DNA of 64,000 nt, from positions 1,324-65,323 of the forward strand of contig JAUYAV010000019.1 in assembly GCA_030693325.1 (NCBI GenBank), written 5' to 3'. The position numbers were made by a program, and so were the translations under genes. The notes below the pieces were generated by a model, which saw only the letters and a list, made by a program, of their open reading frames with translations, made no database searches and had not been told where the DNA came from. This stretch comes from a bacterium (lineage in GTDB: Bacteria; Patescibacteriota; Minisyncoccia; UBA6257; MFKM01). Every line of letters starts with the position of its first letter. The first letter of the stretch is position 1. Shown here one piece after another: positions 11,189-38,168 of the stretch.

Positions 11189-11875
11189 ATGTTTAATAAG
11201 CTGCTCTACCAGCCGATTCTTGAGTTTTTGATATTTATTTATAAATTTATCGCTTTTCATGATTTGGGCTTGGCTATTATTTTATTGACAATCTTCATAA
11301 GATTGTTGCTTTTGCCGTTTTTTTATCACGGGGCGAAGGAACAGACAAAAATTCAAAGATTGCAGCCCTTGGTTAAGAAAATCCAGGAAGACCACAAACA
11401 CGACAAAGAAAAACAAACTCAGGCCTTAATGGCGCTTTATAAAGAACACAGTATCAATCCCTTCTCCAGTATTTTGCTTTTGATTATTCAATTGCCGATT
11501 TTAATCGCTCTTTATCGGGTTTTTCTAACCGGACTTTCCAATACCATTTTTGATAGTCATAATTTTTTGGGGTTAATTAATTTAAACCAAAAAAGTTTAT
11601 TGATAACGGTTTTGGCGGTTTTGGCGCAATATCTGCAGGGACGAATGATGTTGCCGAAAAATACCGGTCAGGCCACAGGTGCTGACAAAACCAGCCAGGC
11701 AATGCTATTATATATCGGACCGGCGCTGACTCTTATTATCTTGACCAATCTTCCGTCTGCTCTCGGTCTTTATTGGTTGGTTTCTTCTGTTTTTTCTTTG
11801 GGTCAGCAAATTTTTATTAATAAAAATTTAGAAAAACATGGAACAATTATCGGAGAAAATAAAAAAACTGCTTGA
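11189..11875 (+). CDS. yidC: Membrane protein insertase YidC (short form)
   Basis: 228 aa polytopic protein; follows rpmH; conserved YidC/Oxa1 C-terminal helices. Confidence 0.8.
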   Translation: MFNKLLYQPILEFLIFIYKFIAFHDLGLAIILLTIFIRLLLLPFFYHGAKEQTKIQRLQPLVKKIQEDHKHDKEKQTQALMALYKEHSINPFSSILLLIIQLPILIALYRVFLTGLSNTIFDSHNFLGLINLNQKSLLITVLAVLAQYLQGRMMLPKNTGQATGADKTSQAMLLYIGPALTLIILTNLPSALGLYWLVSSVFSLGQQIFINKNLEKHGTIIGENKKTA

Positions 11876-12290
11876 GTTGATGGGAGCGGAGGATTTTGAA
11901 ATCAATTTTAATGAACCGTCTAAAAGATTTTCAATCACCACCAATGACCAGTTAATCGCTGAGAATTTGCAGGGTTTTCTGGAGGATTTTGAATATATGA
12001 TTAATCTGATCTCCCAGAAAGAAAACCAGCAAAAAGTGTGGCTGGATGTGAATAATTACCGCCGGGAGCGTGAACGATTAATCGCTGAATTAGCCAAAGC
12101 CGCCGCCCACAAAGCGATTATTAATAAGGAAGAAATTCAATTGCCGCCGATGAACGCTTATGAGCGCCGGCTGGTCCATTTAGAGATTGTCAATCATCCC
12201 GATTTAAAAACCGAGAGTGTCGGTGAGGGAAAAGAGAGGCACGTAATAATTAAACCGATAGAATTACAGCAATTACAGCAATTACAGTAA
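11838..12290 (+). CDS. jag: Jag/KhpB-like KH+R3H RNA-binding protein
   Basis: yidC-jag synteny; R3H-like C-terminal motif (YERRLVHLEIVNHPDLKTESVGEG). Start could instead be the in-frame ATG at 11880. Confidence 0.7.
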   Translation: MEQLSEKIKKLLELMGAEDFEINFNEPSKRFSITTNDQLIAENLQGFLEDFEYMINLISQKENQQKVWLDVNNYRRERERLIAELAKAAAHKAIINKEEIQLPPMNAYERRLVHLEIVNHPDLKTESVGEGKERHVIIKPIELQQLQQLQ

Positions 12291-12315
12291 TTACGGTAAT
12301 TGCTGTAATTACTCA
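12262..12315. repeat. GTAATTAC palindromic 9-mer array (jag end / convergent gene)
   Basis: gaattacagcaattacagcaattacagtaattacggtaattgctgtaattact; also encodes a QQL repeat at the jag C-terminus. Confidence 0.8.
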
Positions 12316-13421
12316 ACTTCCAAAGAATATAATTGATTATCGTAGCGATTGATGAAAAGAATTTGATCGCCGAGAATTTTTAAATCAGAGGCATCGATTA
12401 TTTTCCCTTCGGTAGGGGCGAAAATCAGTTCCGGGGCGACTAAGTTATTTAAGTTAAATTTATAAAGCGCGTCTATAGTGTAAATTGATTTTTGAAGATA
12501 ATCATCCGGCCAGTTTATTTTGGGATTAGCTGAGGTGAAAAGAAAGCAATAAAGAGAATCTGATTTTAAAACGCATTTATCCGGCAGAACCATTATTGAA
12601 AAATTATTTATTGTTTGCCCGGTCCAATTTATTAAACTGCTTTTTTGGTTTTGGAATTTCAGGCCCGAATCTTCTTTCAGCCATTTAATCATCAAACCGG
12701 TTCCCGGCGGGACAATTTCGGTAAAAGTTGTCTTAGTCGGCTTGGCAAAATTAAGACGCCAAGCCGAACCCATTACTGAATTAGACGGTTTGCCGGTAAA
12801 AATTATCTCATCCGGTATCAGCCAATTCATTTTTAAATCTTGAAGAGAAAAGTTTTTGACAATTGTTGTTGAGGACTTCGCTTTTTGCTTGGGATCGCTT
12901 GATAAATACTTGGCCAAATCAAGAATAATTAAATCGGTCTGGTTATTTTGGTTTATGATAGCGGCTAATCTTTTTCCTTCAGGCGACCAGGCCACAGATT
13001 TAATCTCCAAAGGCAGAGGCGACCAGGTACTGCTCGCTAAATCAAAAATACTGAATTGCGGTTGGCGAGAATCGCCGAAAGCGGCAATGACTTTTTGGCT
13101 GTCAGGCGACGGCAAGGCGAAATTGAGATTAGTAATTGTTTGTTCCGAGAGATAAGTATTTTGAGGAGCGCCGATTTTGGCGATTTTCCCTTCAGGAGTA
13201 ATATAAAAAATTTCTTGGCTCGTGGAGGCCGTCCAATAGTCAAAAACCGGTTCCTGGGAAACAATTTTTAGTTGGCTTGCCGCTTGTTGCGCGCTTGTTG
13301 ATTCTGTTTCCGGTTTAGCGGTGATAATCGGTGAAGCTGCTCGGCTTATAAAATAGTAAATAACCCAGCCAAGCGCTAGAACTCCGACTACCCCTATGAT
13401 GATTGCTAAAATTTTGCGCAT
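12309..13421 (-). CDS. Membrane-anchored protein with TolB-like beta-propeller repeats (hypothetical)
   Basis: N-terminal TM helix; WSPEGKRLAAII-type propeller repeat; last gene of the minus-strand block that follows the T4SS-like genes. Confidence 0.45.
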   Translation of the reverse strand: MRKILAIIIGVVGVLALGWVIYYFISRAASPIITAKPETESTSAQQAASQLKIVSQEPVFDYWTASTSQEIFYITPEGKIAKIGAPQNTYLSEQTITNLNFALPSPDSQKVIAAFGDSRQPQFSIFDLASSTWSPLPLEIKSVAWSPEGKRLAAIINQNNQTDLIILDLAKYLSSDPKQKAKSSTTIVKNFSLQDLKMNWLIPDEIIFTGKPSNSVMGSAWRLNFAKPTKTTFTEIVPPGTGLMIKWLKEDSGLKFQNQKSSLINWTGQTINNFSIMVLPDKCVLKSDSLYCFLFTSANPKINWPDDYLQKSIYTIDALYKFNLNNLVAPELIFAPTEGKIIDASDLKILGDQILFINRYDNQLYSLEVE

Positions 13422-13464
13422 ATTATCTTAAAGATTAAGAATTAAAAGCTCAGATAATAATTAT

Positions 13465-14178
13465 TTATTTAGGTGTTTTAGAAATACAAATTTTTCCTGA
13501 TCCTTTTGCAGAATTTCCTTGGCAAGCATCCGTCTCGATACTAGGACCATACATAAGTTCCCATCCCTCTTTTTTCAATTCGTTAAATTCTTTTTCAGTA
13601 ACCCAAGTATATTGAATTTCGCCTACTCTTGTTACTTCTGTTTCGCCTATTTTGTTTCCCAAAGAATCTCTAAGGGGTATCTTTTCGGTTCCTCCCACTG
13701 TTTCAAGAACCCCTGGTTTGACCTCTTTTAAATATTCCGGTAATTTATATTCCGGCAGTTTTATAATTTCAATATTAGGGTCGGTTAAACTGACTAATTT
13801 GGGGTCAATGGTGTAAAGAATCAGATAAGCGCCAAAAAGCAGGGCAATGCCCCAAAGCGCTTGGAAAATGCGGTCAGCGGCATCTTTCTGGGTAGTAGCG
13901 TTGCCGGCTGAAACAATGTATTGAATAGCGCCGAAAATTATCATTCCAAAGGCCAGCGCCCCGGAGATCATCAAAGCGAATTGGTAAAAACGGGCGATGT
14001 AGGCCGCCGGACTTTGGGCTGTCTGCTCGGCGGTCGGGCAGGTTCCGCCGGCTATCGGCGAACAAGGAAATTGATATTTTAATTCAGCCGCAAAAACAGG
14101 CGTAGAAAGTAGAAAATAGAAAGTAGAAAATAGAAAAATAGAAGCGAAAATTATAGATTTGTATTTATTGCTGGACAT
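13465..14178 (-). CDS. TrbC/VirB2-like pilin-type protein with C-terminal extension
   Basis: Signal peptide ...STPVFA/AEL followed by two hydrophobic helices (IARFYQFALMISGALAFGMIIFGAIQYIVSAGN ... IFQALWGIALLFGAYLIL), as in VirB2/TrbC pilins. Confidence 0.5.
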   Translation of the reverse strand: MSSNKYKSIIFASIFLFSTFYFLLSTPVFAAELKYQFPCSPIAGGTCPTAEQTAQSPAAYIARFYQFALMISGALAFGMIIFGAIQYIVSAGNATTQKDAADRIFQALWGIALLFGAYLILYTIDPKLVSLTDPNIEIIKLPEYKLPEYLKEVKPGVLETVGGTEKIPLRDSLGNKIGETEVTRVGEIQYTWVTEKEFNELKKEGWELMYGPSIETDACQGNSAKGSGKICISKTPK

Positions 14179-14854
14179 TTAAATTAATTTCTTTAGACCC
14201 TAATTCCAAATCATTTTTCAAATTTTGAGCGGTAATCTTGATATTGATGTTTTGGTTTGAAGGAATAGGCGGAGTTAGCGTCAGTCCTAAGAGATTATCT
14301 CCTTTGTTTGCGAATGTCTGGCCGTTTACCAGCCAAGTAAATAGTAGTTCTCCTAAATTATTTATATTAAAGAAATAAGGAATGGCTTGGAAATCATTTT
14401 TTTTACCCAAGGGAATGGAATTATTTGCCGGAGAAGGGGTTTGAATAACGATTTTGGGATTGGCGATCGGAATATCAGCCGTGCCGTCATATTCTTGCTG
14501 ATTATAATTGACCGCGGCCCGGACAAAATGAGAATTAGTCGCGCCTTTAGTCGCGGTAAAATTTATTTGTTTTAAACCCTGACCTCGCCCCAATAATTTT
14601 CCGTCAAGATACCAGAAAATGTCGGCTTTTGATAAATCTTGGATTTTATTTGTTATTACCAATTCCAAACCGAGTTTAATATTGGTGCCGGACGCGGGCA
14701 AAATTTTTCCTTGATATTCCGCCGGAACAAAACTTTGAGCCTGCCAGGTGATTAAAACTTGGGAAGCGGTTTGAGCGGTTGCGGACAAGACAGAAAGTAA
14801 AAAGCAAAAACTTGAAAGTATAAAAAGAAATAAAATTTTATTTTTTAAATTCAT
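14165..14854 (-). CDS. Secreted beta-rich protein (T4SS-like cluster, unknown function)
   Basis: Signal peptide; 14-nt overlap with the downstream gene, consistent with an operon. Confidence 0.4.
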   Translation of the reverse strand: MNLKNKILFLFILSSFCFLLSVLSATAQTASQVLITWQAQSFVPAEYQGKILPASGTNIKLGLELVITNKIQDLSKADIFWYLDGKLLGRGQGLKQINFTATKGATNSHFVRAAVNYNQQEYDGTADIPIANPKIVIQTPSPANNSIPLGKKNDFQAIPYFFNINNLGELLFTWLVNGQTFANKGDNLLGLTLTPPIPSNQNINIKITAQNLKNDLELGSKEINLNVQQ

Positions 14855-14865
14855 AATTTGAGTTT

Positions 14866-14910
14866 CAATTACTTAATTACCCAATTACTTAATTACTGTT
14901 TAGTAATTTT
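14866..14910. repeat. TAATTAC-type repeat array
   Basis: caattacttaattacccaattacttaattactgtttagtaatt. Confidence 0.6.
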
Positions 14911-15282
14911 TTCGGTAGCGGCCCCTATTTTACCACTAGCAACTGCCGCTACTTGTGTTATTTTGGGGTGGTTAGCTAAATAAATTGTCACATTCAAACT
15001 GACGGTTTTCCCGAAAGGAAGGTCAAGCCCTAAGAAATTAGCCGCCCCATCCAACAAACTGCCGCTTAAATACCACAACCCCTTTATTCCTTTCATTATA
15101 AGCCAAAACTGAATAATTAGCCAAGTGAACCCGGCCACAATCCATTTTACTACTAAAAGAATTTGTCCGAGCACCGGTATGGCTACCAAAAGAGTTGCCG
15201 CTAATTCAAACAAATCCGCCGGGATCACAATCATATTCATCAGAATTATTTCCACTAAACCAATTTTTGGGCTTTCCTCCAT
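14893..15282 (-). CDS. Small polytopic membrane protein (T4SS-like cluster)
   Basis: 129 aa with 3 predicted TM helices. Confidence 0.4.
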   Translation of the reverse strand: MEESPKIGLVEIILMNMIVIPADLFELAATLLVAIPVLGQILLVVKWIVAGFTWLIIQFWLIMKGIKGLWYLSGSLLDGAANFLGLDLPFGKTVSLNVTIYLANHPKITQVAAVASGKIGAATEKITKQ

Positions 15283-15304
15283 TTTTCTTAATTACTAATT
15301 ACTT

Positions 15305-17056
15305 TTATCCCTCAGCTTCTTTCTTTTCTAAAATTTGCTCCGGGTTGGTGGTAATCATTTGGTCTTCGGTGTAAGAAGCGACCACTTTTAAGGCGGCGTG
15401 TTTTTGGCCGGCGAAAAACAAACCTTCGCCTACCGCCGCTTCCAGAAGAAAAGTTTTTTCCACGTCTGTCAGACCGAAAGTTTTAGCGACCAAATCAATA
15501 GTGGCTGGCGCTTGTTTCATCAAAAATTGAAGCGAAGAGTTGTTGATAATCGGCCGGCCGTAAGGAGAGCCCAGAAAATCTTCCACATCTTGGGTGATAG
15601 TCGTCACGCCCAAATAATATTTTCTCGCTCTTTTGGCTAAGCCGAAAAGGAAAGAAGCGCTGTCGGCGTATTTCATCATCCACCAGGCCTCGTCAATGAC
15701 CACGATTCTCTTTTTAAGTTCGGTTCGGATGAGATTCCAGAGAAAATTAAGAATGATGTACATTGCAATCGGCCGCAGTTCGTCTTCCAGATCGCGGATG
15801 GAAAAAACTACCAGGCGGTTTTTGATATTGACGTTGGTCGGCTGATTGGTGAAGCCGGCGTAAGAACCGCGGGTGAATTTTTCCAGACGTTTTGCCAAGC
15901 CGGACCCGCCCTCGGTATTTTCCAGAATCGTCTGGAGATCTTCCATTAAAGGCGGCTGGGCTTGGGAAAAATCTTTTTCCGGAGTGATGTCGCGGGAAGC
16001 GTAGGTTTCCAAAATCGTCCGGTCCAATATCGCGTCTTCTTCCGGGCTGACTTCGCCAAGCATTAATTTAACCAAACCAACGAGATTAAGAACGTGCGAC
16101 TTGAATACTTCCGCCGGTTCTTCGTCCTGAGGAATAACAGGGATATCAAAAGGGTTGATATGACTGGCTGAGGTTAGGGAAATTTTGAAATAACTGCCGC
16201 CGATGGTATCCGCCAGGTTTTGGTATTCGTTTTCCGGGTCAATAATAATAACGTCCGTTCCCATCATCATTGAACGCAGGACTTCCAGTTTGGCAAAATA
16301 ACTTTTTCCGGCGCCGGCTTTGGCAAAAACGGTGAAATTCGCGTTTTCCAAAGAAAACCGGTCAAAAATCACCAGACTGTTATTACTTAGATTGACGCCG
16401 TAAAGAATACCTTCATCTGAAGTCAGATCCGCCGAAATAAACGGAAAAATAGAAGAAGCGGGTCCGGAATTAAGCGGCGTGCGAATCGCTATTTTGTCCG
16501 CGCCTAAAGGCAAAACCGAAGAGAAGGCCTCCGGCTGCTGGAAAAGCGCGGGCTTGATATAAACCAGTTTGCTTTCCAAAAGTGAGACAATGAGATTTTC
16601 CAAACGCGCCAATTCTTTGGGGTCGCTTCCGTAGATAGTAATATAAATTCCAACTTCAAAAAGTTTTTCCTGGGCTTGCTGGAGCGCGTCCCGAAGATTT
16701 TCCACGTCTTGGTAAGCGGTTTCAAGCATCGGGTCGCGGACCAGTCCTTTTTCTTCCCGTACCATTATTTGAGCTTGAATTTGAGCGGTTTTTTTTCGGA
16801 GATTTCGCAAGGCCAAAGCCGTATCAATGGGATGGATATGAACGGCGATATCAAGAACTTCCGCTAAATTAATTATCGGCGAGAACCAGCCGCTGGTTAA
16901 ATAGCGGGGGTAAGTGAAAAGGAAAAAAGTTTTGACATATTTTTCTCCGAGCTTAAGATAGCCGGCGTTAACTTCCAAACCCGCCGGGGCGATGATGTCT
17001 TTGATGTCTTTCCCTGAAGCCGTATAACCTTTTGGAATTTCTATTTTTTTAGGCAT
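15305..17056 (-). CDS. VirB4/TrbE/CagE-family conjugative-type ATPase, C-terminal ATPase part
   Basis: Walker A FAKAGAGKSYFAK; Walker B with the VirB4 hallmark RIVVIDEAWWMM; 583 aa. Confidence 0.75.
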   Translation of the reverse strand: MPKKIEIPKGYTASGKDIKDIIAPAGLEVNAGYLKLGEKYVKTFFLFTYPRYLTSGWFSPIINLAEVLDIAVHIHPIDTALALRNLRKKTAQIQAQIMVREEKGLVRDPMLETAYQDVENLRDALQQAQEKLFEVGIYITIYGSDPKELARLENLIVSLLESKLVYIKPALFQQPEAFSSVLPLGADKIAIRTPLNSGPASSIFPFISADLTSDEGILYGVNLSNNSLVIFDRFSLENANFTVFAKAGAGKSYFAKLEVLRSMMMGTDVIIIDPENEYQNLADTIGGSYFKISLTSASHINPFDIPVIPQDEEPAEVFKSHVLNLVGLVKLMLGEVSPEEDAILDRTILETYASRDITPEKDFSQAQPPLMEDLQTILENTEGGSGLAKRLEKFTRGSYAGFTNQPTNVNIKNRLVVFSIRDLEDELRPIAMYIILNFLWNLIRTELKKRIVVIDEAWWMMKYADSASFLFGLAKRARKYYLGVTTITQDVEDFLGSPYGRPIINNSSLQFLMKQAPATIDLVAKTFGLTDVEKTFLLEAAVGEGLFFAGQKHAALKVVASYTEDQMITTNPEQILEKKEAEG

Positions 17057-17726
17057 TTTCTTTGGTTATTTTCAATTCTCCCCTTTCAACTAATTGGGGG
17101 TTATAAAGATTGTAAACAAGCTCAATGGATTCTTCGGTGCCGAGCGGAATCGCCCGCAAACCGATTTGCTGAAGGCCGGCAACCACTTGGTCAGTTCTCT
17201 GGCTAAGTTGCTGGAGATTTTGCTGGAGATTTTCGGTTTGAGCGGCCTGGTTTTGGGAAGCCGAAGTTTTTTCCTGCCTGTCGGCAGGCAGGGCTTTTTT
17301 AATAAAACTAATTACGCCTTTGGCGGCTTTCGGCAAATAAACCGGGTCATAAGGGACTACCACAAAAAAAGTTTTATCCATAATGGCGTTATTCGCCACA
17401 AATGATTTTATAAATTCCAGGTATTCGGCAATCTGGGTTTTCAATAATTCATTGGATTCCTGCGAATGGCGTTCCTGGAGTTTTGAAAGATAGGATTCAA
17501 TATTCAGGCGGCGGGAATGAATGAAAATCTGGATTGAAAAGTCCAGGGCATTCAAGAGATTTTGATAACCGTAAGTCATCAAGTCCTGTTCTTGTTCTGA
17601 TTTTAAATCAAAATTCACTCCGCTTACCATTAACAACTGGCGCAAAGCGCCGTTTTTAAGAAAAATTACGCCGTCGCGGATTTCCTGAAGTTCCACGAAT
17701 TCCTGGGTTGATAATGTTTTGGGCAT
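17049..17726 (-). CDS. VirB4-family N-terminal domain protein (split from ATPase part, 8-nt ATGCCTAA overlap)
   Basis: IRDGVIFLKNGALRQLLMVSGVNFDLKSEQEQ resembles Gram-positive VirB4 (PrgJ/TcpF/Orf16-type) N-termini. Its stop overlaps the downstream start. Confidence 0.55.
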   Translation of the reverse strand: MPKTLSTQEFVELQEIRDGVIFLKNGALRQLLMVSGVNFDLKSEQEQDLMTYGYQNLLNALDFSIQIFIHSRRLNIESYLSKLQERHSQESNELLKTQIAEYLEFIKSFVANNAIMDKTFFVVVPYDPVYLPKAAKGVISFIKKALPADRQEKTSASQNQAAQTENLQQNLQQLSQRTDQVVAGLQQIGLRAIPLGTEESIELVYNLYNPQLVERGELKITKENA

Positions 17727-17748
17727 TTATTTAATTATAAATTTTTAA

Positions 17749-18252
17749 TTATCTATAGTCCACTCTTTTCGCCGCTTGTTTTTCACCGGTGGATTTTCGG
17801 AAAATTTGATAGCGTTCTTGAACGTTTCGCATGGCGGATTTTTCTCCGGGCAGAGGCAAACGGCTGGTTAAAATTTTTTGGCCGAGGGATTTGATTTTTT
17901 GCTGGAAGCTCAGTTCTTTTTTAATTTCTTCAATTTGCTTCGCTTCTTCTGGCAAAATTATTTCTTCTTTTTCAATTTCTCTTTTCCAAAAATAAACTCG
18001 CGGCCGCCAGTAATAAAATAGAGCGGAAAAAAGGATTTTGGTCAGTGATTGGCCGTTGATTTCTATCAAAGCCAGCGCGCTGGCCGCTCCGAGTAAAATA
18101 ATACTGGCCATAAACCAAAGCCAAAATTGAAAAATAAAAAACATAAGAAAACTCAACCCGCATGCTGCGGCGATATAAAAAAATTGCTGGAGGGTTAAAG
18201 GTCCGACAATTCTTTCTTTAACTTCGTAATATTGAGGAACTTGAAACTGCAT
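17749..18252 (-). CDS. PrgI/VirB3-like two-TM protein
   Basis: Two adjacent TM helices (FFYIAAACGLSFLMFFIFQFWLWFMASIILLGAASALALI) and a charged C-terminus; directly upstream of VirB4 as in Gram-positive T4SS. Confidence 0.5.
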   Translation of the reverse strand: MQFQVPQYYEVKERIVGPLTLQQFFYIAAACGLSFLMFFIFQFWLWFMASIILLGAASALALIEINGQSLTKILFSALFYYWRPRVYFWKREIEKEEIILPEEAKQIEEIKKELSFQQKIKSLGQKILTSRLPLPGEKSAMRNVQERYQIFRKSTGEKQAAKRVDYR

Positions 18253-18253
18253 A

Positions 18254-18287
18254 AATTACAGTAATTACAGTAATTACTGTAATTGTT
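18254..18287. repeat. GTAATTAC palindromic 9-mer array
   Basis: aaattacagtaattacagtaattactgtaattg. Confidence 0.8.
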
Positions 18288-19290
18288 TATTATTCTTTAG
18301 ATTAATAGTGTTTCCTTCCAGTTTCACTTCGTTTGGATTTTTGTTTTCTCTTGCCACGCTAAAAGAATCAAGATTAATGACCGGCGGCGCCGATGGCGTT
18401 ATTGGTTTTGGCAGTTCCGGTTTTATAATAGGCGTCTCAATTTTCTGAGGCGCGATTTCTTTTTGGGGTTGTTCTCTTTGTTTTCCAAAAGGATCGCCTT
18501 GAGTTTTACCGAAGGGAGTGGGGATATCCACTTCTCGGTAATGAATTATTCTCTGTTTCGGGGCTTCGGTTTTGGCAACGACTGGTTCTTTTTTCTCTTC
18601 GATTTTTTGGCCGAAAGTTTCCAATTCCACTTTAATCGGCGATTCCGGCGTTTTAGAGCTTTCTTTTTTAAACCAACCCATAGTCGGCATCGTTGTTTTC
18701 TTTTTTTCGGTAAACGCTTTGGTTTCGGTTTCCTGATGGATGATAAACGGCTGTTCGGCGGAAATTGGCTTCGGAGAAATAACCGGTTCAATTTTCGGCG
18801 GCTGGATTTCGGTTTTGGGCAATTGCGCGGCTTTCGGCAGGTCGGTTATCTCAATGGGTTTGGTTGTAGCTTCTGGTCTGAGGCCTGACGGTTTAAACTC
18901 AATTTCTTTTTCAACTTTCGTTTCCGGTTCGGATTTGATTGTTGGTTTTATTTCCGTCATCGCGCTAGCCGGGCTATAAACTTTTTCTAAATCTGTTCTA
19001 AGCGGGGCAAAAATTTTTCTATTAATTTCATGGCTGATAGGATTAACAATTTGAGGATTCAAATTGAGGGCTTCCTGGATTTCCCGAGCCAGGTCATCGG
19101 GATGAAGAAACCCGAAAATTACATCGCCGACTATCATCGCCATAGTAGAAATTTTTTCCTCAGACAGATGATTAAGGGTGCCGATTTGCCAAACAATATT
19201 GGCATTAATTTCAGAGAACAAAGCCTCTCTCAGGTTATCCGGTAAAGTATCCCATCTTTCTAAAACTTGTTGTCGTGAGATTTGAAGCAT
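18274..19290 (-). CDS. Pro/Lys/Glu-rich disordered protein with structured N-terminal domain (hypothetical)
   Basis: C-terminal half is low-complexity PKxE repeats. Confidence 0.4.
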   Translation of the reverse strand: MLQISRQQVLERWDTLPDNLREALFSEINANIVWQIGTLNHLSEEKISTMAMIVGDVIFGFLHPDDLAREIQEALNLNPQIVNPISHEINRKIFAPLRTDLEKVYSPASAMTEIKPTIKSEPETKVEKEIEFKPSGLRPEATTKPIEITDLPKAAQLPKTEIQPPKIEPVISPKPISAEQPFIIHQETETKAFTEKKKTTMPTMGWFKKESSKTPESPIKVELETFGQKIEEKKEPVVAKTEAPKQRIIHYREVDIPTPFGKTQGDPFGKQREQPQKEIAPQKIETPIIKPELPKPITPSAPPVINLDSFSVARENKNPNEVKLEGNTINLKNNKQLQ

Positions 19291-19309
19291 AAATACAAAT
19301 TATTAGTTA

Positions 19310-21250
19310 TTAAGTTGTAGGTGGCGGAGTCGCTGACCCCGAAGGTGTTATTTCTTCGGCGAATAATCGCTTCCCTAATGTTTTTTTATAAACCGCTCTT
19401 GCTTGCGCGCCTAATTTCCTCATTGCCTCGTCTTTGTTTTTTTCCATAAATGATATTTCTTTTTCGATAAGCGACTTATAATTATCAACAGTTCCTTCTT
19501 TAATGTGCGGCATAACCCTGCCAAACGCTCCGGGGGTCTTTCGGGCGAAAGCGCCAATTAACTGTTTTTGAATATTTTGAAGCTTAGAATCGGTTGTCGT
19601 TTTAAAAATTTCATTCCATTGCCCTTTCGCGTAATCTTTGGGATCAAGCGATTTAAGAAATTCGTCCGTAGCAGCCACTAATTCGTCGTTTGTTTTCGCG
19701 GACACCATTCCCACGCTACGCCCGATAGCTTTTGTTATATTTCCAAAATTAAGCCCTGTGGTTTTGAAATCTTTTTCAACATTAGCCATAGTTGCTCCAT
19801 TGGAGAAGTATTTTGATATTGTTTCCGTGCTTAAATCTTTTTTCTTGGCTAATTCTTCAAGAATAACAGCTCGTTTTATGCCGGTCGCAGCTTGAGCTTC
19901 AATGTTTAACCTCTGAGGTGACAGCCCCGCGACTTGTTTCCTATATTGTTCGGCGGGCACCCGTTCCGCTTGAGCGCCCAAACGATTAATGCCTTGGCCA
20001 ACCCATTTCGCCGGAGCGAATTTTGAATTGGCTAAATTCCTGGTCCAGCCTTTGACTTTCTCGGATCCGGTTACTTTCCCAACACCTTCCCAAGCTTTTC
20101 TGCCGGCGAATCCTTTGATCCCCTTGCCAGCCGCCGACGCCACATTCAAAAAGGTTTTTGCCCCGCCGATTCCCATTTTGTCGGAGATTATCAATCCGAA
20201 CATCAAAAATCCGCCCACTATAACTAAATTAATAACACTGCCGGCAAAATCTTTCATCGGAGTGCCGCCAAATCCCATAAGGTCGTTTAGCTTTCCAACG
20301 CCTTGAGCGTCAAGAGATATTCCGCCGGTGAATGTTTTGTAGTTGTTGGCGAGATAAACCGCCAGATAAAAGAAAAATGAAGCAACGGGAGCGAATATGA
20401 TCCATTTTATGAAATTTTTCCACCACTCTTTCCACATAGATTCGGTTGAAGGTAAAATCATGGAAAGGCAAGCTAAAGGGACCAAAACCAAAAGCACGCT
20501 CAAATTAAGATATCTTAATATAAACATCGCCGCCACCGCTATCAGGCACAATGCTACCAAAAGAGTGAAAACAACCGCGAAAACAAGGCCGGCAATTATT
20601 TTTACCGCTCCGCTGAAAGTGAGGATATTTGCTGCAAAATCGGCGGCGTCTTTCACGCCCAGAAATTGTCCGACATTAAAAGCCGCGGCAAGAGACGTTC
20701 CTAACCCCCCCACTCCCGCGCCGGTAATGTTTGAAATAAAATACTTGGTCAGCATATTGGAAAAATCAATAAAAACGCCGGCGAACATTAAACTGAAGTT
20801 GACCAAAAGCGCCACCGCGATTAATTTCCCCAAAGTGCTTTTGGCTTCGTATTGCTGCATCCGGAGAATGGTAGCGATGGCGATGATAATAATGAATAAA
20901 ACAAAACCTAGATTCGCCAGGTCCCTCGTGATTTTCCAGCCGACGTCAATAATGGGGTTTTGGATAACCGCGAAATTCAAACTGAGAGCAAAATTACTCA
21001 AAAATCCGCCTATCTGAACGGCAATACTGGCTATACTGCCGGCAATAAGACTGATTCCTATAATTGTTAAAGACAATGGCACTGCCGCAATGCCACCGAC
21101 CACATCTAATCCTGTTAAAACAGGGTTAGAAGAAGAATTAGAAGTTGCCGCTGGCGAATCGGCCGCGTAAATTTTCCCCGTATTTCCAATCAATAAAAAC
21201 ATAATCAGGCCTAAAGTGACAATCGCCAATATTTTTTGTTTTTTGTTCAT
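19310..21250 (-). CDS. VirB6/TrbL-like polytopic membrane protein with C-terminal soluble domain
   Basis: Signal peptide, then at least 6 TM helices over ~350 aa, then a ~250-aa hydrophilic C-terminus. Position and topology match VirB6-like T4SS channel proteins. Confidence 0.5.
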   Translation of the reverse strand: MNKKQKILAIVTLGLIMFLLIGNTGKIYAADSPAATSNSSSNPVLTGLDVVGGIAAVPLSLTIIGISLIAGSIASIAVQIGGFLSNFALSLNFAVIQNPIIDVGWKITRDLANLGFVLFIIIIAIATILRMQQYEAKSTLGKLIAVALLVNFSLMFAGVFIDFSNMLTKYFISNITGAGVGGLGTSLAAAFNVGQFLGVKDAADFAANILTFSGAVKIIAGLVFAVVFTLLVALCLIAVAAMFILRYLNLSVLLVLVPLACLSMILPSTESMWKEWWKNFIKWIIFAPVASFFFYLAVYLANNYKTFTGGISLDAQGVGKLNDLMGFGGTPMKDFAGSVINLVIVGGFLMFGLIISDKMGIGGAKTFLNVASAAGKGIKGFAGRKAWEGVGKVTGSEKVKGWTRNLANSKFAPAKWVGQGINRLGAQAERVPAEQYRKQVAGLSPQRLNIEAQAATGIKRAVILEELAKKKDLSTETISKYFSNGATMANVEKDFKTTGLNFGNITKAIGRSVGMVSAKTNDELVAATDEFLKSLDPKDYAKGQWNEIFKTTTDSKLQNIQKQLIGAFARKTPGAFGRVMPHIKEGTVDNYKSLIEKEISFMEKNKDEAMRKLGAQARAVYKKTLGKRLFAEEITPSGSATPPPTT

Positions 21251-21251
21251 T

Positions 21252-22811
21252 TTATGGAGTCGTGACTATACAGAGAGATAAGCGGGATTGAATTGATGAA
21301 AGCTCGGCTTGCTTGTTTTTGGATTCGTCTTCGCTGGCTTTTTTGGTTGTTTCCGGGCCCGGGGCAATTTCTAAAATAAGGGACTGATATTTTGTCAGAA
21401 AATCATTATAGTGCTGGGTCAAAAGAGCCATTTCCCGGTCTCGGAAATCAGCGGAAATATTAACAGCTTCAGTTATGCCGGCTTGATTTTCATTAACAAT
21501 GATTTGATAATTAGCAACTTCATTTGTCAAACGAGTAATTTCGTTTTGAGCGCTGGTTATGTCGCTGTCAGAAACCGGCGGCTGGCAGTTACGCGTTTTT
21601 AACGCATTTAAGTTCGTAACTATTTGCTGTTCGGAAGAAAGAGAGGATTTTTTATTGGCTAAAATTGCATTGAAATAAGCAAGGAATGCCTGATAATCAC
21701 TTTTTATCCGGTCTCTTTCTTGCCTTTTCGCCAAAAGAGCGGGGTCATAATTTCCATAAGGATTATAATTGCCGGAGGCGGAACTCTGGGGCGTGGTGCT
21801 CGGTTTCATTAAACTTAAACCCTCTGTAAAAAGACGATTGATGGTGGCGTTGACCAGGGCCGCTACCCAAGATTGGATATTCTGAGCCCATTGATAATCA
21901 GATGTAACGGCTTGAGCGGCTAACGCGCCGACAGTATCGCCTGGAGTAACAATTTCTTCTTTAATACACTTTATTGTCCCATCGGGTAACTGGGTTGAAG
22001 CTAAACATCTTTTAACCGATAAAAATCCCTTACCGGCTATGGCTTCGTTTTGAGCCGCTTCTTTGGCTTTGGCGCCCTGGATCATTGCTTCATCCATCGT
22101 CATATACAAAGAACCGTAATAATTATTTTCCGGCCACCAGGATTGTTCGTAAGCTATCCAACTGCCATTTCGGAAGTCGTCGTAGAAATTTTGAATATTG
22201 GCGACAATATCGTCAAGGGTGCAGGAAATCCGGTTTTGAAATCTTTGCACCGGCAACAAACTTATTCTGACTTGCAAGCCGAAGGGCTTACAGAGAAAAT
22301 TCAAATTGCTGTTATTGATAACTTCGCCCACCCCCGTGTTAAAAGCGTCGCCTAAAAATGTGTCCCAATTGGTGACGTATCTTGGCTGGCCGCCGCCCTG
22401 AATCCAGTTCACGGTTTCGTCAACAAGCCAGTCCAAGATCATTTTAGCAACGACATCGCGGACGCAATTTTTGGATTTCATAAGAGCGTCGGAGGTTTGT
22501 TGTTTGGAAATTTCGCTCGGCAGATTCACTACCGTTGTGGGCACGGTGAGCATTAAGACGCTTGTTGCCAATTCTGTGACATCCTCCACTTTATGAATAA
22601 TTTTAGATGCCAGTCCGGCGACGAAGTTTTCCAGTTGAATTCCCAAAAAACAGCTTACCCCCGCGCCTATGGCTTGGCCAACGGCTTCTCCTGGCGTGCT
22701 TGCTCCCGCTTGAGCCGCCGCTTTAGGCGTAAAAACATTGCCCAAGCCGCCGAAAATAAGCGAAGAAATGGTTATTGTTAGAATAATTTTTTTAAAAAAT
22801 AAAGATTTCAT
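21252..22811 (-). CDS. Secreted protein, coiled-coil C-terminus (T4SS-like cluster, unknown)
   Basis: Signal peptide MKSLFFKKIILTITISSLIFGGLG...AAAQA; 519 aa. Confidence 0.4.
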   Translation of the reverse strand: MKSLFFKKIILTITISSLIFGGLGNVFTPKAAAQAGASTPGEAVGQAIGAGVSCFLGIQLENFVAGLASKIIHKVEDVTELATSVLMLTVPTTVVNLPSEISKQQTSDALMKSKNCVRDVVAKMILDWLVDETVNWIQGGGQPRYVTNWDTFLGDAFNTGVGEVINNSNLNFLCKPFGLQVRISLLPVQRFQNRISCTLDDIVANIQNFYDDFRNGSWIAYEQSWWPENNYYGSLYMTMDEAMIQGAKAKEAAQNEAIAGKGFLSVKRCLASTQLPDGTIKCIKEEIVTPGDTVGALAAQAVTSDYQWAQNIQSWVAALVNATINRLFTEGLSLMKPSTTPQSSASGNYNPYGNYDPALLAKRQERDRIKSDYQAFLAYFNAILANKKSSLSSEQQIVTNLNALKTRNCQPPVSDSDITSAQNEITRLTNEVANYQIIVNENQAGITEAVNISADFRDREMALLTQHYNDFLTKYQSLILEIAPGPETTKKASEDESKNKQAELSSIQSRLSLCIVTTP

Positions 22812-23630
22812 TTAAGATCCGATTTCTTTTATTTTTTCTCCTAAAATGGTTTGAATTTTTTCACCGCTACTAACCAAGCTATCCATGGCTTCTAAAGCCA
22901 AACCTCCCTTAGGTGGGTCAGTGGGATAATAAGCCATTGCCCGATAGACAACCGCCGAGTTTTTGGCGTAAACAATCATCATTTTATGGATATCAACCCA
23001 ATCCGCCGGGACCGTCAGATTCAAGTATTGGTCAGCCAAGTTTTTATAAATACCGGCTAAACGATTAGCTGAAGAAGGATCGATTTTTTGGTAAGTATCA
23101 ACTATTACTTGTAAATAATTTTCGTTAAAGTCGCCAAAAGTTATTTTATTGATTTCTCCGATGGCTTTTAAGTATCGGGTTTTGGCTTCTTTTGAAATCT
23201 CCGATGAAATTTTTAAGTCAGCATTATTTACGGTTGATACTAATTTGAAATCTGATAAGCTGTCATTAATAACTTTATTTACTAAATTTTCCGATGCCGT
23301 GTTTATATCAGGAGACAGGGTTCTTTTTTCCTGGTTTACGAGATTATTATTTTGGATTTCCTCAAAAAGATTTTCCCCTAAGGCTTTTACGGTGTTATTT
23401 TTTTCGTCAAAATTATAAGGAGTTCTTGGTTCTGGCGTTGGAAGAGAAGTTAATTTAATTTCTGGCGAATTTTCGTTAGGAATAGATTGTTTTTTTGGAG
23501 TGGTAACGAAATAAGCCCCGGTTAAAAATGCGATTACTACCAAAATTATAAGCCCTGATTTTAGGGTTTTCATTAATTTAATTATAACAAATTCTATGAT
23601 ATTATTGTACCATAGAATATGGTTAAACAA
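22812..23630 (-). CDS. Membrane-anchored protein, first gene of T4SS-like operon (unknown)
   Basis: Single N-terminal TM; 272 aa. Confidence 0.4.
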   Translation of the reverse strand: MFNHILWYNNIIEFVIIKLMKTLKSGLIILVVIAFLTGAYFVTTPKKQSIPNENSPEIKLTSLPTPEPRTPYNFDEKNNTVKALGENLFEEIQNNNLVNQEKRTLSPDINTASENLVNKVINDSLSDFKLVSTVNNADLKISSEISKEAKTRYLKAIGEINKITFGDFNENYLQVIVDTYQKIDPSSANRLAGIYKNLADQYLNLTVPADWVDIHKMMIVYAKNSAVVYRAMAYYPTDPPKGGLALEAMDSLVSSGEKIQTILGEKIKEIGS

Positions 23631-23948
23631 TCTTTCACCTGCTTATTTTTAGGGATTGTTTTTTTATCTTTTGTTTTTTGGGCTAAACCAGCCGAAGCTA
23701 TTTTGGGTTTCGGGGGGAGGATATTGGAGATTACGCTTTGCGATGAAGGAGAATTAATCACTATTGGGCCTCCGCGACCAGGATTGTTTTTATTGACGCC
23801 CGGCAGTCTGATTTTTTCTTGGTATCAAATAAGAAAGGGGCCTTGGGCTTTTGGCGCTTATGTTCCGGGCGGGATTTGCACTATTTTGGGCTTCCCCGTC
23901 GCCTTTCCTTTGGGCACGATAACCATTATCGGGACCTCACTTTTTTAA
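23619..23948 (+). CDS. Small secreted/membrane protein (hypothetical), divergent from T4SS-like operon
   Basis: Signal peptide ...AKPAEA; 109 aa with a hydrophobic C-terminus. Confidence 0.35.
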   Translation: MVKQSFTCLFLGIVFLSFVFWAKPAEAILGFGGRILEITLCDEGELITIGPPRPGLFLLTPGSLIFSWYQIRKGPWAFGAYVPGGICTILGFPVAFPLGTITIIGTSLF

Positions 23949-23956
23949 TCTTATTG

Positions 23957-24826
23957 TTATAGCGCAAGCCACTGTCTTGTGTTTGCCAATCTTTTTATCT
24001 GCTCAATCGTTAAATCCTGCGGCCGGTCGCCGGGATTAATTCTTAATTTCTCCAAGATTTTTATAATTTCATTTTTTGATTTTCCCGTTCCTTCTAAATT
24101 ATTAACAATCGTTTTTCTCGGTTGCTTGAAAAGAATTTTTATTAATTTATAGTAGTCTTCGGCACTATCACGCGTGATAGTGCCGAAGGGTGTTAATTTT
24201 ATGACCGCGCTATCCACTTCCGGCCGGGGCTTAAAATCAGTTTTGGGAATATAATCAATAATTTTCGGTTCGGCCCAGAACTGGACGCTGGCCGCCAGGA
24301 GATTCATTTGCGGTGGCAGAGCGCAAATCCTTTCCGCCACTTCTTTTTGGACAGTCAAAACGACAAGCGAGGGTTTATTTTCCAACTCGCCGATGATTCG
24401 CAATAGATGGCCGGTGATATAATAAGGAATATTGCCGGCAATCTTATAATTCTCATTTTTTAGTTTATTATTTTCAGCAAGTTTTGGGATGATTTTTAAG
24501 GCATCGCCTTCAATAATCTCAATGTTTTTATCTAATTTGAATTTTTTTTGGAGAAATCGGACAAGTTCTCCGTCTTTTTCAATCGCAATTATTTGAAATT
24601 TGTCTCCCTTCGGGAGATGTCCCGCAGGGACAGAAATTATAACTTCTCTCCCCTCAGGGGGTCTCCTGCAGATAGAGAAGTTATCTGACAAAAGCAGAGT
24701 CAATTCTCCGCGCCCCGGTCCGATTTCAATAATCGTCTCGCCGGAGTTTGGGCTTAAAACCTCAATAATTTCCTCTAGTTTCTTTTTATTGATTAAAAAA
24801 TGTTGCCCTAATCTCTGTTTGCTCAT
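23957..24826 (-). CDS. rsmA: 16S rRNA (adenine1518/1519-N6) dimethyltransferase RsmA/KsgA, carrying a ~25-aa in-frame insertion
   Basis: QHFL...EIGPGRGELT SAM-binding motif; NIPYYIT motif. An extra segment, SICRRPPEGREVIISVPAGHLPKGD, sits between the SAM motif and IIAIEKD and is encoded by palindromic repeat DNA. Confidence 0.85.
   Translation of the reverse strand: MSKQRLGQHFLINKKKLEEIIEVLSPNSGETIIEIGPGRGELTLLLSDNFSICRRPPEGREVIISVPAGHLPKGDKFQIIAIEKDGELVRFLQKKFKLDKNIEIIEGDALKIIPKLAENNKLKNENYKIAGNIPYYITGHLLRIIGELENKPSLVVLTVQKEVAERICALPPQMNLLAASVQFWAEPKIIDYIPKTDFKPRPEVDSAVIKLTPFGTITRDSAEDYYKLIKILFKQPRKTIVNNLEGTGKSKNEIIKILEKLRINPGDRPQDLTIEQIKRLANTRQWLAL
24600..24690. repeat. In-frame palindromic double/triple-hairpin repeat insertion inside ksgA
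   Basis: tgtctcccttcgggagatgtcccgcagggaca + ataacttctct...agagaagttat hairpin. Shares its core with copies at 28146..28182 and 51463..51495. Confidence 0.7.
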
Positions 24827-24851: not shown

Positions 24852-24888
24852 TGCTATAACAATTTTTAGACGACCGCATTGTTTTTGT
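24852..24888. promoter_or_regulatory. Inverted-repeat operator-like site TATAACAA-N-TTGTTATA
   Basis: tataacaatttttagacgaccgcattgtttttgttata; a near-identical copy sits upstream of the regulator gene at 25491..25530. Confidence 0.5.
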
Positions 24889-25481
24889 TATAGAAGTTCT
24901 TTTTCGTCGTCTATTTCACCTACCGTAATCAATTTGATGTTTTGATACAAATTGCGATTTATAAGTTCTTCAAAAAGATCCTCTGCGAGGGGCTGCTTGC
25001 CTATAAAAACACTTTTTTGTAAAAGTTTATACTCAAGATTGGCAAGCCGGCTCCGGAGCCAGTTGCGGTCTTTGCGTCTTTTTTCGGGAATATCAAACAT
25101 TATTATCCGCCATTTATTGTCCCAGGGGATTTTTTTGTTTTCTTCTTGGTATCTTTTAATAAAATTCAGGCCTTTTAATGTTGGGAGATAACTACCTTTT
25201 TTATTTTCCACTAGCCCTTTCTTCTGAAGGCGCCATAAAATAGTTCGCGCGCTATTTTCTTTCAGTTCTTTCATTTCTCTGTAATAATCCCAAAAAGATT
25301 TTCCTTTTAATCCTTTTTCCATTGCTCCGGCCATTCCCATTCTTGGATGTTTAAGCTCCAATAAGTCAATTAAAGTTGAAGCGCCGCGTTCAGCCAGGCC
25401 TAAAAGCAGCGCCATACCGGCTGAACTTATTTTTGTCGGCAAACCTAATCTTTTTTCTGTTGGCATTTTTTGTTTTAGCAC
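24888..25481 (-). CDS. PaaX-like regulator (winged HTH + Cas2/VapD-like C-terminal domain)
   Basis: C-terminus WRIIMFDIPEKRRKDRNWLRSRLANLEYKLLQKSVFIG matches the Cas2-like fold signature in PaaX-family proteins. Flanked on both sides by the same palindrome. Confidence 0.5.
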   Translation of the reverse strand: MLKQKMPTEKRLGLPTKISSAGMALLLGLAERGASTLIDLLELKHPRMGMAGAMEKGLKGKSFWDYYREMKELKENSARTILWRLQKKGLVENKKGSYLPTLKGLNFIKRYQEENKKIPWDNKWRIIMFDIPEKRRKDRNWLRSRLANLEYKLLQKSVFIGKQPLAEDLFEELINRNLYQNIKLITVGEIDDEKELL

Positions 25482-33251: not shown

Positions 33252-33763
33252 TAAACTTGTTTTTTGAGTAAAATTTTAGGAATGTCTTCCACCGCGGTGA
33301 AAGAATCAGCGTGTTCCTTAAGAGAGCCGGAAGTGGTTTTGCTGAAAGCGGCGACCTCAACTTGCTTTCCCAAACCCCATTTCAGATATTCAATCAAAGG
33401 CACAAAATCGCCGTCTCCCGTCACCAAAATCACCACATCCATGGAATCAGCCATTCTGATGGCGTCTACCGCCAAACCTACGTCCCAATCGGCTTTTTTT
33501 TGCCCTCCCGGATAAATCTGGAGGTCTTTAGTTCTTAATTCCAGGCCCATCTGGCTCAACGCTTCAAAAAATGATTTTTCGCCCAAAGCGGTCTCACTTT
33601 TGACCACGTAAGCCACCGCCCGGATAAGTTTGCGGTTGCCGACTAAGGTTCTAATTAGTTCTTTGAAATTAACCCGCGCCCGGTAAAGATTTTTAGCCGA
33701 ATGATAAAGATTTTGGATATCAATAAAAACACCTACTCGTTGGTCCTTATAAGCTATAGACAT
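33251..33763 (-). CDS. NYN-domain (LabA/YacP-like) protein
   Basis: VGVFIDIQNLY...VILVTGDGDFVPLI acidic-residue pattern of NYN ribonuclease-like domains. Confidence 0.6.
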   Translation of the reverse strand: MSIAYKDQRVGVFIDIQNLYHSAKNLYRARVNFKELIRTLVGNRKLIRAVAYVVKSETALGEKSFFEALSQMGLELRTKDLQIYPGGQKKADWDVGLAVDAIRMADSMDVVILVTGDGDFVPLIEYLKWGLGKQVEVAAFSKTTSGSLKEHADSFTAVEDIPKILLKKQV

Positions 33764-38041: not shown

Positions 38042-38066
38042 GGGGGTTGACCCCGTTAGAAGTCTA
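38042..38066. repeat. Inverted-repeat element arm GGGGGTTGACCCCGTTAGAAGTCTA (identical to 4112..4136)
   Basis: Exact 25-mer repeat; the partner arm GACTTCTAACGGGGTTGACA at 38169..38188 gives a 14-bp inverted repeat flanking ~100 bp. Confidence 0.8.
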
Positions 38067-38168
38067 TCAAATTCTGAGTTCAGTAATAATTAGCTGAGTC
38101 TTGCCTGAAATGGAAATTTAATTCATTATTCAGGAATAGAAAAAATTTATTAAATTTTTTCTGTCCAA

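Follow-up and report, generated by a model that had tools for sequence, protein, structure and literature searches.

A chromosomal type IV secretion gene cluster at the replication origin of an uncultivated Paceibacterium

The DNA considered here (the window) is a 64,000-nucleotide (nt) stretch of contig JAUYAV010000019.1 (assembly GCA_030693325.1) from an uncultivated bacterium of the class Paceibacteria. It contains eleven tightly packed minus-strand open reading frames (ORFs), extending from 12309 to about 23573, which very probably encode a chromosomal, vertically inherited type IV secretion system (T4SS) of the Patescibacteria clade. This system would derive from the monoderm conjugation machinery of mating-pair-formation class FATA (MPF-FATA), with the DNA-processing parts lost. 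Most ultra-small Patescibacteria carry a T4SS-like cluster beside the replication origin. In these bacteria, which are very abundant and for the most part uncultivated, the T4SS is one of a small number of machines known to be indispensable to life as an epibiont. The locus represents a system already published for Patescibacteria, described between 2023 and 2025; its novelty is therefore low, its value as one more example from an uncultivated Paceibacterium is comparative and modest, and what interest remains attaches to its unnamed proteins, both core and accessory. What is added is the full 11-gene layout of Paceibacteria, the separation of a six-family core from variable extracellular accessories, and the recognition that TrsD here is the separately expressed N-terminal domain of VirB4, fused and split forms of which occur in sister species. 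Two core proteins without a known family (g04 and g08), a very large unannotated family (g10) and a variable C-terminal extension on the pilin are flagged as well.

The type IV secretion cluster and its setting

The ORF g05 (15305..17056, minus strand, 583 amino acids (aa)), comprising the middle and C-terminal P-loop domains of VirB4, matches the NCBIfam model NF045971, "VirB4-like conjugal transfer ATPase, CD1110 family", with 370.3 bits against a cut-off of 325 over model positions 181-730, and the solved C-terminal domain of the Thermoanaerobacter VirB4 (PDB 4ag5) with E=5.6e-43 over 335 aligned residues. Pfam also returns P-loop_TraG (93.7 bits), AAA_10, DUF87 and TraC_F_IV, and both a Walker A motif, AKAGAGKS (16301..16324), and the Walker B/DEAW motif, VVIDEAW (15683..15703), are present. 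An initial annotation of this DNA had proposed a VirB4-family ATPase with these two motifs, which the matches confirm; the hidden Markov model searches place the protein beyond FtsK or AAA_10 families alone, and T4SS matches are found among the membrane proteins as well. The closest plasmid VirB4 proteins, at 30-36% identity, come from Bacillota (Firmicutes) and Actinomycetota (Actinobacteria), so that the "Gram-positive type" of the same annotation is correct. The protein thus passes the equivalog cut-off of the CD1110 family, which is represented on CTn2 and clostridial plasmids, and resembles 4ag5. The CD1110-family proteins, which belong to mobile elements, each consist of one polypeptide of ~750-800 aa, whereas in the window the first ~225 residues are separate and the genes are chromosomal and immobile. 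VirB4 was placed in its clade by nearest neighbours, namely the 120 best database matches (57-100% identity) and the 80 best GTDB species loci. The taxon-named proteins among these 120 matches (~11) are all from Patescibacteria/Parcubacteria, and the 80 loci are all from uncultured metagenome-assembled genomes (MAGs), whose titles mostly name a Patescibacteria-group taxon and in some cases read simply "bacterium". Named close relatives include Jorgensen-, Wolfe-, Kaiser-, Colwell- and Nomurabacteria, among others.

The neighbouring membrane proteins fit this assignment. They were followed through 81 loci, that is, the 80 species loci and the window's own sequence (L001), with L082-L085 counted separately. 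The ORF g07 (17749..18252, minus strand, 167 aa) lies above the cut-off of the Pfam family PrgI (PF12666; 30.6 bits, cut-off 27, E=5e-7), has a transmembrane (TM) hairpin at residues 22-67 by hydropathy, is located 22 nt upstream of the TrsD-like ORF and has homologues in 77/81 loci; the PrgI/VirB3-like two-TM protein expected directly before VirB4 is therefore substantiated. The ORF g09 (19310..21250, minus strand, 646 aa) shows, by hydropathy, a signal peptide and at least six hydrophobic segments, followed by a hydrophilic C-terminal tail of ~290 aa, as in proteins of the "extended VirB6" type. Among its orthologues (19-36% identity), 3/30 match TrbL/VirB6 (PF04610; best E 1.3e-7) and one matches TrbL_4; the orthologue in L085 has a faint TrbL_3 match, and homologues occur in 56/81 loci and in the minimal clusters L082 and L083. 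The VirB6-like nature of this polytopic protein, proposed initially, is supported by way of these orthologues.

The ORF g02 (13465..14178, minus strand, 237 aa) was initially read as a TrbC/VirB2-like pilin, and this reading is backed by proteins 54-66% identical to it that carry the T4SS_pilin family PF18895, by a signal peptide (14089..14178) and by a two-helix hydrophobic core at residues 58-124 (13807..14007). The core is followed by a non-conserved C-terminal extension of ~110 aa (13468..13806). Structure models were made for two proteins only, g10 and the pilin, and the AlphaFold2 model of g02 contains a helical hairpin at residues 57-124 with a predicted local distance difference test score (pLDDT) of ~75-82. 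Alignment A6 of the pilins shows a conserved core with variable flanks. The pilins of L085 (138 aa; VirB4 89% identical) and L083 (85 aa) are without the extension, and those of some other relatives exceed 400 aa and have Cys-rich tails. The single extended pilin also distinguishes the locus from Saccharibacteria, where an array of 6 short pilins is found. Profile searches against PDB sequences with g09, g10, the pilin and PrgI returned nothing significant.

The cluster is flanked on one side by dnaN (8242..9351), dnaA (9555..10952), yidC (11189..11875) and jag (11838..12290) and on the other by ksgA (23957..24826), and it is therefore located at the replication origin; beyond ksgA follow a PaaX/Cas2-like gene, murD and an M23/LysM peptidase gene. 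The order ksgA-g11-g10-g09-g08-PrgI-TrsD-VirB4-g04-g03-pilin-g01-jag-yidC-dnaA-dnaN recurs in relatives, with the ksgA- and dnaA-side context present in most of the 80 species loci. The comparison of synteny that the initial annotation had recommended thus yields a gene order repeated in 80 species-level genomes, an arrangement far beyond chance. The same layout is found in L085, and the wider neighbourhood is conserved too, with a penicillin-binding protein, RuvC, YebC and a PilB-type ATPase on one side and the M23/LysM protein and a ComM-like ATPase on the other. The guanine-plus-cytosine (GC) content of the cluster, 0.40-0.44, matches that of its flanks. When 51 ORFs distributed over the 64-kb window were scanned with Pfam, no relaxase, VirD4/TcpA or integrase was detected, and no tRNA gene that might serve as an integration target lies within 10 kb of the cluster. 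FtsK (49048..51156), with alpha and gamma domains, is of the chromosomal translocase type, and a T2SSE ATPase of the PilB/GspE (type IV pilus) type (824..2524, minus strand, 566 aa) is PilB-sized rather than VirB11-sized, so the earlier statement that no VirD4, relaxase or VirB11 is visible in the window holds. No paralogues of the cluster proteins occur elsewhere in the window. As the context is conserved across 80 Paceibacteria species, sequence comparison indicates that the cluster is a chromosomal system which the class Paceibacteria has inherited vertically, and not a mobile element.

These features agree with what has been described for the phylum. A 2025 survey by Quinonero-Coronel et al. 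found VirB4 in 2,417/3,035 Patescibacteria genomes, as a clade nested in MPF-FATA, with TrsD as its commonest companion (adjoining virB4 in 1,664 cases) and with PrgI/VirB3, VirB6 and VirB2-like pilins near virB4; relaxases were present in only 103/3,035 genomes, the type IV coupling protein (T4CP) was rarely adjacent, and the T4SS of Paceibacteria was situated near dnaA, dnaN and ksgA (PMC12102498). By transposon insertion sequencing (Wang et al. 2023), the equivalent cluster, pilins included, proved essential in the cultivated Saccharibacterium Ca. Southlakia epibionticum (PMC10633639; PMC12857230), the only organism for which such a requirement is known. The window shares with these systems (PMC12102498; S. 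epibionticum ML1 SEML1_0006-0019) the MPF-FATA-related VirB4, the adjacent TrsD, PrgI/VirB3, the VirB6-like protein and the VirB2-like pilin, together with the lack of a relaxase and of an adjacent T4CP and the chromosomal position near dnaA/dnaN/ksgA. It differs from S. epibionticum, in which peptidase and lysozyme genes lie directly downstream of virB4, and it carries accessory extracellular proteins (g10, g11, g03 and g01) that are not named in the survey. The T4SS-like reading of the initial annotation is accordingly upheld, but that annotation missed the published Patescibacteria-wide descriptions, which already covered the lack of relaxases and the dnaA/dnaN/ksgA position (PMC12102498, PMC10633639). 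Conjugative MPF-FATA systems of the pCF10, pGO1, CTn2 and ICESaNEM316 types differ from the window in that no relaxase or T4CP is found in its 64 kb and no plasmid or integrative element is involved.

The two-gene VirB4 ATPase

VirB4 had been described initially as a single gene at 15305..17726. It is instead encoded by two ORFs, g06 (17049..17726, minus strand, 225 aa), TrsD-like and corresponding to the VirB4 N-terminal domain, and g05. Since these are in different frames, the operon has 11 minus-strand genes and not the ten first counted. All other ORFs named at that time are present on the minus strand at the positions given for them, and the ORF listing (translation table 11; coordinates are those of the whole window) also bears out the tight packing, with overlaps of 14 nt (14165..14854 with 13465..14178) and 8 nt (17049..17726 with 15305..17056) and remaining spacers of 0-43 nt. 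At the VirB4 junction, g06 ends with ...KENA* (GAA AAT GCC TAA) and g05 begins with ATGCCTAAA..., its ATG lying inside AAATGCC; the frame of g05 is +1 relative to g06, and the 8 nt shared are ATGCCTAA. In NCBIfam, g06 matches TIGR00929 VirB4_CagE at positions 19-176 (E 5e-8) and NF045971 at positions 2-116, and NF041427 TrsD/TraD below its cut-off (E 4.8e-6; 26.5 bits, cut-off 200); precomputed Pfam matches are PF26593 TraC-like and, faintly, PF27097 VirB4_TrbE_N.

The state of VirB4 was surveyed in VirB4-centred loci from the 80 species-representative genomes, 77 of which were scored as split or fused. Separate ORFs for the N- and C-terminal parts are found in 73/77 loci and a single ORF in 4/77; the spacing between separate halves ranges from a 29-nt overlap to a 486-nt gap, and five loci have an unrelated small gene between them. 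In the fused VirB4 proteins of sister species (792 aa), g06 aligns with residues 9-225 and g05 with residues 218-791, and nothing is missing. When g06 and g05 were concatenated as a homologue search query, ~20 protein clusters at 83-93% identity were 577-590 aa long and covered only the C-terminal 72% of the query, and many proteins at 57-66% identity were ~790 aa long and covered 99-100% of it. An independent Logan assembly (run SRR13727537) agrees with the window at 100% identity across 11,922 nt, a stretch that includes the VirB4 junction. Because two ORFs occur in 73/77 loci, with varied junctions and with genes inserted between the halves, the split is genuine, a real and common two-cistron state that reflects neither an error in sequencing nor a pseudogene nor programmed frameshifting. 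A programmed +1 frameshift at GCC-TAA-A joining the two ORFs was considered and rejected, as relatives show gaps, other overlaps and inserted genes at the junction.

Comparison with the fused proteins further indicates that what is called "TrsD" in these bacteria is no more than the N-terminal domain of VirB4, produced as a separate polypeptide. The staphylococcal pGO1/pSK41 system (TrsC, TrsD, TrsE), a subclass of MPF-FATA, follows the same PrgI - TrsD-like - VirB4 three-gene logic, and the pGO1 type is the only classical subclass with a separate TrsD that resembles the VirB4 N-terminus and stands beside a VirB3-like TrsC. However, pGO1/pSK41 is plasmid-borne and conjugative, has a relaxase, a T4CP and a cell-wall hydrolase and lacks a VirB2-type pilin, and the TrsD-like ORF of the window lies far under the NF041427 cut-off.

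The genes between the TrsD-like and VirB4 ORFs of relatives (L003:5214-5678, L017:9564-9997, L025:2156-2643, L033:9431-9919 and L035:4312-4756) are of two types, four-helix-bundle "23S rRNA intervening-sequence protein" (PF05635) or PD-(D/E)XK GxxExxY, and further small unrelated inserts are located within the T4SS cluster of L084 (15344-15757 and 16338-16718). The inserts look like small selfish or mobile genes that have repeatedly targeted this operon.

Core and accessory proteins

Comparison with the minimal clusters L082 and L083, which have a fused VirB4, separates a core of the VirB6-like g09, g08, PrgI, TrsD/VirB4, g04 and the pilin from an accessory set of g10, g11, g03, g01 and g12. 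The first unnamed core protein, g04 (14893..15282, minus strand, 129 aa), is a small polytopic membrane protein by hydropathy. It always sits directly after VirB4 and has a positional analogue in most loci, and the motifs of its alignment (A9), namely KIS-PE, D, QFW..KG, E-IP...LP-T-G and N-P, are also found in the minimal clusters. No significant Pfam match was obtained among 22 members of the family; a lone TraL match at E=0.037 was judged to be noise and dismissed. The second, g08 (18274..19290, minus strand, 338 aa), has no TM segment, no signal peptide and no Pfam match, and is predicted to be cytoplasmic. Alignment A7 shows a conserved N-terminal domain of ~105 aa followed by a variable, low-complexity tail rich in Pro, Lys and Glu, and homologues are present in 40/81 loci and in L082 and L084.

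The largest accessory protein, g10 (21252..22811, minus strand, 519 aa), is secreted or anchored and comprises a Cys/Trp-rich, mainly helical conserved domain at about residues 100-330 and a C-terminal four-helix bundle. It matches no Pfam or NCBIfam model. A phmmer search (E <= 1e-5) returned 160 homologues; among the 120 listed, none has a Pfam domain and every source name given is "hypothetical protein". The family amounts to 4,916 clusters at 50% identity (E<=1e-3), and g10, on the upstream side, adjoins the g09 homologue in 41/81 loci and in L084. Invariant columns number 23 and include Trp as well as the cysteines C174, C197, C282, C409 and C514, with C269 nearly invariant. The AlphaFold2 model, built on a 48-sequence alignment, has a pLDDT of 63.7 and a predicted TM-score (pTM) of 0.38, exceeding a pLDDT of 90 only at residues 360-519; a Foldseek search against PDB gave nothing at E<=0.001 and returned designed helical bundles and axonemal proteins. 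Because some longer members of the family are fused to BNR, fn3, discoidin or immunoglobulin (Ig)-like domains, g10 is probably surface-exposed. DUF4141, a protein of Bacteroides conjugative transposons encoded beside the VirB6-like traJ, matches 1/30 g10 orthologues in alignment A2 (E 1.9e-7), 0/40 long family members in alignment A8 and not the g10 of the window. As a weak lead only, g10 might be very distantly related to this Bacteroidetes protein, which occupies the equivalent position beside a VirB6-like gene.

The other extracellular proteins, which also vary between lineages, are g11, g03 and g01. The first gene of the operon, g11 (22812..23573, minus strand), encodes 253 aa from the ATG at 23573; initiation at the TTG at 23630 would give 272 aa. 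The ATG, which was called in the independent Logan contig L001, is the more likely start. By hydropathy, the protein has one N-terminal TM segment and a mostly hydrophilic extracellular remainder; it has no Pfam match, and homologues stand at the same position in 7/81 loci and in L084. The secreted g03 (14165..14854, minus strand, 229 aa), whose gene shares the 14-nt overlap with the pilin gene, has a signal-peptide-like N-terminus and two Ig-like (beta-sandwich) repeats with weak BiPBP_C and PKD_3 matches. Its orthologues match BiPBP_C in 3/30 cases (best E 1.7e-5) and Ig_3 in one, and homologues occur in 54/81 loci; a g03-pilin chimera used as a search query gave 16 matches, 3 of them for g03. 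The last gene, g01 (12309..13421, minus strand, 370 aa), is convergent with jag and encodes a protein anchored by an N-terminal TM segment, with a beta-propeller-like extracellular domain. Its own propeller matches are weak, its orthologues match the PD40, DPPIV_N and YqgU-like propeller families, and homologues are found at the same position in 33/81 loci.

The operon was initially thought to extend over 12309-23948. The minus-strand part stands as far as about 23573, but 23631..23948 (318 nt) holds a plus-strand ORF, g12 (23619..23948), whose 109-aa product carries a signal peptide and is hydrophobic at its C-terminus. This small divergent ORF is also called as a gene in L001 and has an orthologue at the same place and in the same orientation in L085 (E=1.6e-17) and in three other loci; it has no Pfam match, and whether it belongs to the system is uncertain. 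Between the ATG codons of g11 (23573) and g12 (23619), the 45-nt divergent region (23574..23618) contains an 8-bp inverted repeat, ATTCTATG...CATAGAAT, and an extended -10-like sequence, TGTTATAAT, that ends only 7 nt before the g11 ATG, an arrangement suggestive of an operator and of a g11 transcript with a very short leader or none. A promoter scan was uninformative, with 29 promoter-like sites against 27.6 expected.

Outside the operon, 3.5 kb away on the plus strand, a gene at 27099..28130 encodes a protein with Pfam Peptidase_M23 and LysM domains. An M23/LysM gene beside ksgA and the cluster is also found in L082, L083 and L085, and VirB1-type homologues with M23/LysM domains are associated with virB4 in Paceibacteria (PMC12102498). 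This peptidase, a conserved neighbour and possible member of the system, is a candidate for a cell-wall-opening VirB1 surrogate. Since g04 and g08 both persist in the minimal six-gene clusters, they may be new core parts of the membrane complex. A tentative proposal, possible though not the more probable outcome, is that the unnamed proteins are lineage-specific T4SS subunits found in no current scheme, with g04 and g08 in a new membrane-complex core and with g10, g11, g03, g01 and the pilin extension forming an extracellular host-contact module that would replace the Gram-positive VirB8, VirB1 and adhesin functions and set host specificity.

Proposed mechanism, alternative readings and neighbouring genes

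By analogy with characterised systems and with what is published on Saccharibacteria, a hexamer of VirB4 would be held by PrgI and the TrsD-like domain on the VirB6-like platform of the cytoplasmic membrane. VirB4 would spend ATP on drawing Sec-inserted pilin out of the membrane and assembling it into a thin pilus or conduit across the wall. Both termini of the pilin would face the filament exterior and hence the variable C-terminal extension would also lie outside the filament, where this extension and the accessory extracellular proteins may help to hold the structure in place, cap or decorate it and make contact with the host surface. The structure would serve a host-dependent life through attachment and the passage of macromolecules to or from the host; as no relaxase or coupling protein is encoded nearby, conjugative DNA export is unlikely. 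The job of the system is probably that of a pilus or channel for dealing with the host cell. Effector delivery or uptake from the host has been suggested in reviews (PMC11665869; PMC12857230), and tubular structures, possibly T4SS pili, have been described at a parasite-host interface in a 2026 preprint (bioRxiv 10.64898/2026.06.21.733656).

Several points weigh against reading the locus as a Patescibacteria-clade T4SS stripped of its DNA-processing parts. Neither a VirB8-like protein (PrgL/TraM) nor a VirB1-like hydrolase (PrgK/TrsG/CD419) was matched by Pfam or NCBIfam among all the cluster proteins; g11, g08 or g03 may still have a VirB8-like fold. The VirB6-like g09 itself has no significant Pfam match, its one weak hit being TrwC below the cut-off (E 0.079). 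The pilin stays under the cut-off of PF18895 (21.5 bits against 26.6; E=2.4e-4), and Foldseek could not tell its hairpin from others: no match reached E<=0.001, the best being 1.2, and 8dfu, an archaeal conjugation pilus, appeared at E=4.9. The roles suggested for g01, g03, g04, g08, g10 and g11 come from topology, position and the domain fusions of relatives, and for this uncultivated MAG organism, in which the system is known from genes alone, no pilus, substrate or host is known. Moreover, VirD4 homologues occur in most Patescibacteria genomes, although rarely near virB4, and a T4CP or relaxase could therefore lie outside the 64 kb (PMC12102498). This last point, like the homology of VirB4, PrgI and TrsD to proteins of conjugative plasmids and integrated conjugative elements in Firmicutes and Actinobacteria, would favour a mating-pair-formation module of an integrated conjugative element that exports DNA through a relaxase and a T4CP encoded elsewhere. 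Such a module is very improbable in view of the lack of relaxase, T4CP and integrase in the Pfam scans and of a nearby tRNA gene, the core-gene flanks (dnaA, dnaN, yidC, jag, ksgA and murD), the synteny across 80 species, the GC content equal to that of the flanks and the rarity of relaxases in the phylum (PMC12102498). A decaying remnant, in which the frameshifted VirB4 would be a pseudogene and the cluster non-working, could be proposed from the stop codon and frame change beside an A7 run, and has next to no probability. Each half is an ORF of full length that starts at an ATG of its own, two separate genes recur in 73/77 species with varied junctions and inserted genes, the ~20 clusters at 83-93% identity share a length of 577-590 aa, and all 11 genes are intact. 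The same layout is present in the relative with the 89%-identical VirB4, and plasmids of the pGO1 type also carry a separate TrsD (PMC12102498); for practical purposes, the conservation data refute the remnant.

Two further readings concern the cargo. An importer of DNA or other nucleic acid, resembling ComB or Ced and feeding nucleotides to a cell unable to make them, is a sub-case of the Patescibacteria-clade T4SS reading that differs only in the direction of transport, and it is rather unlikely. A T4SS without relaxase or T4CP fits an importer, as in Helicobacter pylori ComB and crenarchaeal Ced. These are work-alikes and not relatives; each has membrane components and an ATPase of the VirB4 type but no relaxase, and Ced also acts together with a pilus. 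RecA, a ComM-like Mg-chelatase ATPase and polynucleotide phosphorylase (PNPase) are encoded in the same window, the idea has been raised in PMC11665869, and host-RNA feeding has been reported for a cultivated relative, with VirB4 discussed there (bioRxiv 10.64898/2026.06.21.733656). The ATPase also matches CedB weakly (NF041017; E 5e-13), but with 48.5 bits where the model requires 700, g05 is not a Ced orthologue, and the CedD match reaches only 17.3 bits against 600 (NF053655; E=0.0015). No DNA-binding or ComEC-type channel model in Pfam or NCBIfam matched any cluster protein. In Ca. S. epibionticum, competence is comEC-dependent and dispensable and the T4SS is essential, which neither proves nor excludes another kind of import (PMC12857230). 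The other reading, a translocator that injects effector proteins into the host in the manner of pathogen T4SSs, is unlikely. It has been speculated on for Saccharibacteria (PMC11665869, PMC10633639), and other T4SSs without a relaxase are effector translocators; yet the T4CP that most effector systems need was not found in the window, and neither effector nor immunity gene candidates were recognised by Pfam within the operon or next to it.

Other genes of the window encode functions that are discussed in the literature alongside T4SSs in connection with host attachment, DNA uptake and RNA scavenging. In addition to the PilB-type ATPase, these are the ComM-like ATPase (28246..29790), PNPase (31209..33251), an adjacent NYN-domain RNase (33251..33763) and RecA (47318..48319), all on the minus strand. 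Between ksgA and murD, the ORF at 24888..25481 (minus strand, 197 aa) encodes a winged-helix and PaaX-type Cas2-like domain protein that is also present in L085 and L017/L057 and could regulate genes locally. For five ORFs of 205-422 aa, Pfam gives no significant match (54162..55430, plus; 30125..31177, minus; 59245..60234, minus; 60231..60887, minus; 61564..62181, plus), and an extracytoplasmic-function (ECF)-type sigma factor at 60784..61335 is located just upstream of two of them. On the plus strand between tRNA genes, the translation of 38046..38187 resembles, at 49-81% identity over 16-35 aa, the C-terminal end of the MurD-like ligase (25563..27080) and may represent a gene fragment. Finally, a plus-strand ORF at 42036..45326 encodes a 1,096-aa protein with Laminin_G_3 (concanavalin-like lectin) and C-terminal Peptidase_S74 intramolecular-chaperone domains. 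This architecture is typical of phage tail fibres or spikes; the gene has a chromosomal context, and its product may be a surface adhesin.

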